A stretch of DNA of 64,000 bases from the IMG/VR virus record IMGVR_UViG_3300042901_002340, one strand, 5' to 3'. A model generated the notes under the pieces. It was not told where the DNA came from, ran no database searches, and worked only from the letters and a program-made list of their open reading frames with translations. Shown piece after piece: positions 63,489-63,688 of this stretch. The stretch is from a virus (taxonomy: Duplodnaviria; Heunggongvirae; Uroviricota; Caudoviricetes). Position 1 is the stretch's first letter, and each line of letters starts with the position of its first letter. The position numbers and the translations under genes are program-made.

Positions 63489-63523
63489 AAAAAAAAAACT
63501 CCAGATCTTTTAGGATCTGGAGT
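63489..63523 (-). terminator. Attenuator-type terminator ahead of tRNA block 2
   Basis: Minus strand actccagatc-ctaaaa-gatctggagt followed by long U tract. Confidence 0.9.
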
Positions 63524-63559
63524 AAAAATATTTAATGCTTATTTGACTAGTGCTTTACA

Positions 63560-63688
63560 TTAAATTATATTGTGACCTCCAGATCCCTTGCTGTACCCAT
63601 TATACCATTTGGCAATGCCCACCTGATTAAATGGTGCAACGCTCTGCGGCATAAACGGTTTTACAATATTTCTGAAAGTTGTTTTCAT
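63560..63688 (-). CDS. Putative attenuator leader peptide 2 (42 aa, MKTTFRNIVKPFMPQSVAPFNQVGIAKWYNGYSKGSGGHNII)
   Basis: Short ORF between promoter and terminator; GGATCTGGAG (63577-63586) is the exact complement of terminator 5' arm. Confidence 0.78.
   Translation of the reverse strand: MKTTFRNIVKPFMPQSVAPFNQVGIAKWYNGYSKGSGGHNII

Follow-up and report, generated by a model that had tools for sequence, protein, structure and literature searches.

A conserved attenuator-like leader ahead of a tRNA gene block in an uncultured 430-kb phage

A 64-kb window of phage DNA (the whole stretch analysed, 64,000 nt, corresponding to the reverse strand of positions 191430–255429 of the 430,120-bp IMG/VR virus record IMGVR_UViG_3300042901_002340) carries on its minus strand a short leader, here termed leader 2, which stands directly ahead of a block of tRNA genes (block 2) and has the organisation of a transcription attenuator. 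Sequence comparison indicates that this attenuator-like element is real and conserved, and leader 2 probably acts by ribosome-mediated transcription attenuation, gauging how well the tRNAs under its control are supplied. The evidence lies in the anatomy of the leader, in the significance of its pairing, in conservation and covariation among relatives and in a match between leader composition and downstream tRNAs that recurs in four independent leader families. The record (direct terminal repeats, G+C content of 35%) belongs to an uncultured phage and holds 28 tRNA genes, all on the strand that is the minus strand of the window, interspersed with HNH and GIY-YIG endonuclease-like open reading frames (ORFs) and one TROVE/Ro60-like gene. 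Block 2 opens with tRNA-Pro(UGG) (63401..63475) and continues with tRNA-Trp, Gln, Lys, Tyr, Asn, Phe, Asn, Gly, Gly, Met, Ala, Val, Arg(ACG), Ile and Gln (55919..63079), the block downstream of leader 2 serving 13 amino acids. Coordinates are window positions and all window features described lie on the minus strand.

Anatomy and alternative folds of leader 2

In minus-strand order, the unit comprises a promoter, an A-rich leader that includes a small hairpin, the ORF of 42 codons, a 36-nt spacer and a terminator, followed by tRNA-Pro. The ORF (42 codons plus stop, 63560..63688) keeps its frame in 19 distinct units of this type. The intrinsic terminator (63488..63523) is built from a 5' arm (segment 3, 63523..63514) and a 3' arm (segment 4, 63507..63498), forming a stem of 10 bp with 5 G-C pairs (63523..63498) followed by T10 (63497..63488). 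tRNA-Pro starts 12 nt past this T-run, and a separate promoter between the terminator and tRNA-Pro is ruled out by the size of this gap.

The putative 5' strand of the antiterminator (segment 2, GGATCTGGAG, 63577..63586) lies inside the ORF at codons 35–38. An earlier note, made from the letters of this DNA, claimed that it pairs exactly with the terminator, and the exact complement is indeed present: GGATCTGGAG (63586..63577) matches CTCCAGATCC (63522..63513) with 54 nt between them, the complementarity extending to 63513 on the terminator. The duplex of the terminator arm with the upstream 150 nt reached −20.6 kcal/mol, against −8.0 ± 1.9 for shuffled sequences (0 of 300 shuffles as good). 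When all terminator-like hairpins of the 430-kb genome were ranked by their upstream complement, the leader-2 terminator came first of 77 and that of a second leader, leader 1, came second (−12.4 kcal/mol), the remaining hairpins giving −11.0 or weaker.

The full leader is predicted to fold as 1:2 plus 3:4 in its minimum free energy (MFE) structure (z = −5.6), and removal of segment 4 makes the 2:3 helix the MFE structure. Segment 1 (codons 4–6, 63671..63678), identified from the MFE fold and from RNAalifold, would act as an anti-antiterminator that pairs with segment 2 absent a ribosome, the 1:2 helix in the MFE of the full leader joining 63678..63671 with 63583..63576; this helix is weaker in the clade of a 373-kb relative. 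A weak spacer hairpin (63530..63565, −1.1 to −4.9 kcal/mol across clades) holds the stop codon in its 5' strand and sits inside the antiterminator loop, with hairpins of different sequence at the matching position in other clades. Riboswitch and T-box readings were rejected, as no Rfam model was reached in the leader: a search of 63300..64000 brought only tRNAs to the gathering threshold and returned no T-box at gathering score or at E values up to 10, the best non-tRNA match in the leader being a sub-threshold chance match to L10_leader (24 bits vs threshold 44).

The promoter region (63701..63789), identified by its repeat copy, the position of its motifs and its retention in relatives, consists of a T-run, TTCGAAAC, 7 nt and a TAAATTTG −7 box (63748..63741), which we take to be a promoter of the Bacteroidota TAnnTTTG type. 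Transcription would start at this promoter, and the leader ORF begins ~50 nt 3' of the −7 box. With 83 occurrences vs 86 expected, the TAnnTTTG word by itself shows no enrichment in the window; promoters were therefore called on the longer architecture that the sites share. The 89-nt promoter region has exactly two copies in the 430-kb genome, 94% identical, the second of which precedes leader 1 (~52503..52416). Within the predicted 5' untranslated leader, a small hairpin, ATAGAT/ATCTAT (63703..63720), can be read from the sequence; it is present in both predicted leader transcripts (63703–63720 and 52417–52434), and other clades change both of its sides (TAGA/TCTA, GAGA/TCTC).

Relatives, covariation and the match to downstream tRNAs

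The peptide encoded by leader 2 is strongly skewed towards the amino acids served by block 2. As the earlier note had counted, these make up 36 of the 42 residues, the exceptions being T3, T4, S16, S33, S36 and H39, and the leader includes one Trp, two Tyr, three Pro and three Phe residues and all four Gly codons (GGC, GGG, GGA and GGT). Among the 42-residue windows of the proteome of the phage itself, just 0.26% contain at least 36 block-2 residues and, under strict wobble rules, block-2 tRNAs read 31 of 41 codons compared with a background of 47% (P = 2e-4). The skew is concentrated in codons 2–31, where 27 of 30 residues belong to the set in leader 2 and 25–30 of 30 across 15 distinct peptides; five peptides, drawn from two clades, reach 30 of 30. 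From codon 32 onward the ORF is hypervariable, with a composition close to background, and the last 11 codons hold three of the six off-set residues. The informative codons are therefore better placed at 2–31 than over the whole ORF as in the earlier note: codons 2–31 would form the sensing zone, and the last 11 codons appear to be shaped by RNA pairing rather than by composition. A codon-level Fisher test of leader against block gave 6e-6 in the 430-kb phage and 8e-7 in the 373-kb relative.

Relatives were gathered via promoter and leader DNA patterns and via a 75-amino-acid (aa) ORF (63084–63311) located between tRNA-Pro and tRNA-Trp. The loose promoter pattern returned mostly noise (117 stretches) and was filtered by neighbouring tRNAs. 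The 75-aa ORF is 87–96% identical in close relatives and 49% identical in a more distant contig, and would be predicted to share a transcript with its flanking tRNAs; neither it nor the 42-aa leader ORF matched a Pfam family. The relatives comprise four close phages (~95% identical), a 343–373-kb clade, two further IMG/VR clades and more metagenome subfamilies, yielding 19 distinct leader-2-type units with 15 distinct peptides and an identical order of parts in all. Other searches returned little: no relatives were found for a 138-aa protein encoded upstream, tblastn of the leader peptide gave no match among 50,697 cultured or deposited phage records, blastn of the leader region recovered similarity to tRNA-Pro only, and a pattern scan of genome contigs matched a single 5-kb contig of a metagenome-assembled genome, which did not reveal a host.

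Across these relatives the first tRNA (Pro or Phe) begins 3–13 nt past the U-run, and it therefore has no promoter of its own and would be made only by read-through. The best complement of the terminator arm lies at ORF nucleotides 98–113 (codons 33–38) in 19 of 19 units, with energies of −10.8 to −20.6 kcal/mol. Close relatives retain the GGATCTGGAG 10-mer, and distant clades substitute 7–10 bp at the same codons that fit their own altered terminator arm, such that the perfect 10-bp helix to which the earlier note drew attention belongs, in the sequences compared, to one clade and not to the family. Segment 2 is GGATCTGGAG where the terminator 5' arm is CTCCAGATC; it is GATCCGGA, ATCCGGA or AGATCTGGA where the arm is CTCCGGATC, and GAGATATCGGA, GAGAGTCAGG or GAGAAACCGGA where the arm is (C/T)TCCGATTCTC. 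An A-to-G change in the arm goes with T-to-C in segment 2, T-to-C in segment 4 and A-to-G in segment 1, and this alteration of one nucleotide position in step in segments 1–4 is the signature of a four-segment attenuator. In an eight-sequence alignment, pairing reaches 100% in the terminator, which has three compensatory pairs, and 87.5% in the antiterminator in the register of the 430-kb phage, where one pair is compensatory (U-A to C-G). RNAalifold also recovered a helix of codons 4–6 with segment 2 (columns 23–30 and 118–125), in which column 28/120 shows a compensatory change from A-U to G-C. At the protein level, residues 1–31 are conserved with synonymous third-position variation, and the variable sites swap almost only among block-2 amino acids; residues 12–15 and 19–31 are invariant in the 19 units despite third-position changes.

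The second copy of the promoter belongs to leader 1 (52257..52503), which is followed by tRNA-Ser and block 1 and comprises a 30-codon ORF rich in block-1 amino acids (52404..52312) and a terminator (52288..52258). Leaders 1 and 2 are complementary in amino-acid composition and share the 89-nt promoter, the order of parts and, with a complementary amino-acid set, the logic. Leader 1 differs in its shorter ORF (30 codons), in a 16-residue run composed purely of block-1 amino acids, in an antiterminator of 7 bp and in a 30-nt spacer with a conserved motif ahead of its first tRNA. All four of its variable sites (4/4) are synonymous. Within the leader-1 family, CTG Leu codons are present where the block gained tRNA-Leu(UAG), and in the clade that lacks a Leu tRNA in its block, the run is likewise without Leu.

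A 429-kb phage found by the promoter pattern carries two unrelated leaders with the same architecture. In one of them, eight consecutive codons specify nothing but Asp, Asn and AGA-Arg, and tRNA-Asn, Asp, Arg(UCU) and Met follow; the other has, within 24 codons, His and Glu three times each, Val twice and Trp once, and precedes tRNA-His, Glu, Val and Trp. In a four-by-four table of leader families against blocks, each family is enriched for its own block only (1.35–2.57-fold, P 0.002–0.005 each), with P > 0.2 in 12 of 12 off-diagonal cells; a Fisher combination of the four diagonal P values, made by hand, gives ~3e-7. The general proposal of the earlier note, a leader-peptide attenuator that samples the tRNAs downstream of it, is thus supported in sequence-level tests by conservation, by the 1:2 helix and by the composition of leader 1 and of the two unrelated leaders. 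As a separate observation, the 429-kb relative (L150) also carries, at ~816–1010 (minus strand), a 65-aa ORF before a tRNA-Ser pair, with nine Ser in its last 17 residues, its stop codon ~8 nt before the tRNA and no terminator; this may be a different, terminator-less form of coupling, or chance.

Predicted switching, rival explanations and surroundings

Under the explanation we favour, transcription would begin at the host-type promoter and enter the 42-codon leader ORF, where the time taken to read codons 2–31 would report the supply of charged tRNAs, of host or phage origin, for the block-2 amino acids. A ribosome lagging in codons 2–31 would disrupt the 1:2 helix and leave segment 2 (codons 35–38) free to capture the emerging 5' arm of the terminator; no terminator hairpin would form, and RNA polymerase would proceed into tRNA-Pro and the rest of the block. 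With fast translation, the ribosome would lie over codons 32–42 as the terminator is made, segment 2 would be masked, and the hairpin and U-run would form, stopping transcription 12 nt ahead of tRNA-Pro. The outcome would be negative feedback in which the tRNA set is replenished when short. Translation of the ORF, regulated read-through, the relative timing of ribosome and polymerase and the physiological trigger all enter this scheme as predictions.

The position dependence of this scheme was modelled by masking an assumed ribosome footprint (−15 to +11 nt around the first base of the A-site codon) in the equilibrium ensemble. For the leader of the 430-kb phage, the model gives terminator and antiterminator probabilities of 0.59 and 0.41 when no ribosome is present. 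Predicted antiterminator values rise to 0.66–1.0 (mostly ≥0.8) with the A site at codons 2–18 and 25–31 and are roughly even (0.41–0.56) at codons 19–24, and the terminator is predicted at 0.99 with the A site at codons 32–42 and at 0.85 at the stop codon. In other clades the terminator is always favoured at equilibrium, and the switch there would therefore have to be kinetic. In these clades, modelled transcripts ending before segment 4 pair the arm with the tail of the ORF (P 0.4–0.9, mostly 0.6–0.9) unless a ribosome occupies the last 8–10 codons. The expected on/off pattern appears in the truncated transcripts of 9 of 10 units.

Several observations weigh against the attenuator explanation. 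The equilibrium preference for the terminator in other clades is one, and incomplete masking at the stop codon is another: the earlier note proposed that a ribosome at the end of the ORF hides segment 2, which the model reproduces for A sites in codons 32–42, but a ribosome at the stop codon masks it only in part in the clade of the 430-kb phage. The covariation of the 2:3 helix taken alone is thin (one compensatory pair, shuffle control not exceeded), and segment 2 is necessarily similar to segment 4. In other clades the antiterminator has only 7–10 bp, in some with a bulge or internal loop, and the duplex energy alone is not significant in three of eight subtypes (P 0.09–0.17); in L157, a natural variant, a C.A mismatch at mid-helix is left uncompensated. 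With regard to composition, the AGA codon (served by tRNA-Arg(UCU), not by block 2), ATA and the six off-set residues do not fit block 2, and Ile codons persist in the 373-kb relative, whose block yielded no tRNA-Ile call. The regulatory codons are mixed and single rather than in runs, and sensitivity to any single tRNA may be low. Residues 12–15 and 19–31 are conserved beyond what a codon checklist requires.

A further difficulty comes from within the block. As the earlier note suspected, the internal TAnnTTTG sites at 62870..62863 and 57350..57343 share the T-run and (T/C)CGAAAG architecture of the leader promoter, and both look like real promoters. The first, a promoter-like site between tRNA-Gln and tRNA-Lys (62863..62900), would let most of block 2 escape the attenuator; with it active, the strictly read-through-dependent genes would be tRNA-Pro, the 75-aa ORF, tRNA-Trp and tRNA-Gln.

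Alternatively, leader 2 may be a genuine terminator/antiterminator switch set by an input other than cognate tRNA supply, such as overall translation capacity (as in general sensors of slowed translation of the ermC or pyrBI class), arrest by the nascent peptide, or the binding of a phage protein or RNA to the leader. Mixed and mostly single codons suit a gauge of aggregate speed, the peptide core shows strong conservation, the leader as a whole is highly structured (z = −5.6), and the conserved 5' hairpin and the spacer hairpin are without an assigned role. However, a general sensor needs neither block-specific, complementary amino-acid sets (Fisher 6e-6 and 8e-7; the four-by-four matrix) nor a choice of Leu codons that tracks the Leu tRNAs of the block, and no Rfam family, including T-box, was reached at threshold. 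We consider such an input unlikely as the basis of the switch.

The invariance of residues 12–15 and 19–31 in 19 units despite synonymous changes, which indicates selection on the protein, also fits a small phage gene of the ordinary kind, flanked by a promoter and a terminator that belong to it, whose product would be the conserved peptide (especially residues 12–31); the tRNAs would then arise from constitutive leakage or from other promoters, and the complement of the arm would have no switching role. The internal promoter ahead of tRNA-Lys and the dominance of the terminator at equilibrium in several clades agree with this. A gene of this kind nevertheless leaves unexplained why four unrelated leaders each match their own tRNA set, why the best arm complement always falls at the same codons of a hypervariable tail and why the leader terminators rank first and second of 77; the first tRNA, 3–13 nt after the U-run, depends on read-through, and neither a Pfam family nor a homologue in cultured phages was found for the leader peptide. 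We accordingly give this explanation a low probability. A chance likeness, with a 10-nt repeat of the terminator arm and a skewed small ORF picked post hoc, is very unlikely, for although the feature came from a by-eye scan of 64 kb in which TAnnTTTG words are not enriched (83 vs 86 expected), it ranks first of 77 genome-wide, its arrangement is conserved and covarying in 19 units from at least six subfamilies, its promoter is duplicated exactly twice, one per tRNA block, and the combined composition P is ~3e-7.

If leader 2 is an attenuator of the favoured kind, the two leaders could conceivably act together as a tRNA-depletion alarm, a suggestion we make tentatively. The ~26 clustered tRNA genes would be mostly off, and a block would come on when ribosomes slow on its codons, for instance through cleavage of host tRNAs by host anticodon nucleases or other tRNA-targeting defences, or through their depletion by phage-induced shut-off of the host. 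This would amount to a sensor-coupled counter-defence and to the first case of tRNA genes that answer to how fast their own codons are decoded, and the alarm would recur across a lineage of 340–435-kb phages with leaders rewritten for each tRNA set. Why phages carry large tRNA sets, and when these are used, is an open question; current explanations are the matching of codon usage, the replacement of degraded host tRNAs and the evasion of tRNA-cleaving defences. A leader that reads the codons of its own block would show that tRNA supply is regulated by demand in at least one phage lineage, through a compact sensor of ~200 nt. Such leaders could also report codon-specific translation speed, and their rewriting as the tRNA content of the block changes, seen among the relatives compared, offers a natural experiment on attenuator evolution.

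The surroundings of the leaders contain further features. An HNH ORF (61918–62376) lies among the tRNA genes (array region 48491–62376), weak GIY-YIG/SegE-like ORFs lie between tRNA genes (60679–61338, 56098–56712 and 49445–50131), and an ORF for a DUF7296 protein (58874–59455) is likewise inside the array. The positions of the endonuclease-like ORFs vary among close relatives, which suggests that they are mobile endonucleases that shuffle the array. Between the two tRNA blocks, immediately 5' of the leader-1 promoter, is the gene for a TROVE/Ro60-like RNA-binding protein (526 aa, 52562–54142), whose closest relative is in a 635-kb uncultured phage (38% identity), with weaker ones in Vibrio, Caulobacter and Brevundimonas jumbo phages. 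tRNA-Arg(UCU) and tRNA-Leu(UAG) stand outside both leader-controlled blocks, upstream of the window (record position 187560–187633), and tRNA-Arg(UCU) lacks a leader, being preceded at ~25 nt by a plain TATATTTG promoter.

A 17-nt conserved motif, TCTTTGACATAATGGAA, is found at 62827–62843 and lies between the promoter or terminator and the first tRNA in several tRNA sets. It also occurs 3' of leader-1-type terminators (52235–52251 in the window, ~13255–13275 in L029, and in the L149 and L150 units). Its near-exact copies in the 430-kb genome are confined to tRNA leaders, plus one case 3' of a promoter, a distribution on which its reading as a general promoter was rejected. An RNA-level signal is more likely, and the motif may mark a site of processing, bind a protein or act as a promoter recognised by a phage sigma factor. 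Related huge phages also carry a transfer-messenger RNA (tmRNA) gene (L149, 15040–15450, minus strand) with the tag GNNAEMRMAA and suppressor-like tRNAs with anticodons CUA and UUA (L150, 11181–11249; L151, 18535–18607; both minus strand), a hint that stop codons are reassigned or suppressed in these phages; no tRNAs with CUA or UUA anticodons were found in the 430-kb genome.

Comparison with known systems

Leader-peptide attenuation is textbook control for amino-acid genes. In the trpL, hisL, leuL, thrL, ilvL and pheL systems of E. coli and Salmonella, a short ORF lies between the promoter and the genes, contains cognate codons and, through the position of the ribosome, selects between alternative pairings. 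Leader 2 has the sequence features of this type, namely a leader ORF, cognate-codon enrichment, a terminator before the first gene and predicted 2:3 and 1:2 helices, and it resembles the trpL/hisL type in the position of the ORF, the cognate codons, the four segments with 1:2 and 3:4 opposed to 2:3, and the placement of the terminator just before the first gene.

Among systems that control the translation apparatus, E. coli pheST is preceded by a leader-peptide attenuator with pheM. His-codon leaders have been described before hisS and hisZ in bacilli (PMC2965389), in the text of which the terms 'tRNA gene' and 'tRNA operon' were not found. In these leaders, as would hold for leader 2, attenuation is directed at a part of the translation machinery serving the codons that are sensed, but they differ in having one amino acid per leader and a protein gene as target. 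T-box riboswitches bind uncharged tRNA directly, without a ribosome, via Stem I, a specifier codon and a conserved T-box sequence. They share with leader 2 a terminator/antiterminator control that would answer the state of specific tRNAs; in contrast, the T-box covariance model (Stem I, specifier loop and T-box sequence) did not match the leader 2 region 63300..64000, and leader 2, without an Rfam match, instead has an ORF under coding selection. No published leader-peptide control of tRNA genes was found in the literature, in which coverage of subscription journals was incomplete.

Leader 2 departs from the trpL/hisL type in several respects. Its targets would be tRNAs rather than enzymes, it samples 13 amino acids with mostly single codons in place of a run for one or two, and its segment 2 is within the ORF, 5' of the stop codon, and not at or after it. 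The element is phage-borne and present in two complementary copies. The sensitivity of classical amino-acid attenuators has been modelled (PMC1183508). Whereas known leaders sense charging, and hence amino-acid supply, leader 2 would also sense the abundance or integrity of the tRNAs. On this comparison, the range of leader-peptide attenuation would widen: its targets would take in tRNA genes besides enzymes, a checklist of 13 amino acids would stand in place of a single one, and it would reach a probable Bacteroidota-type host and viruses.

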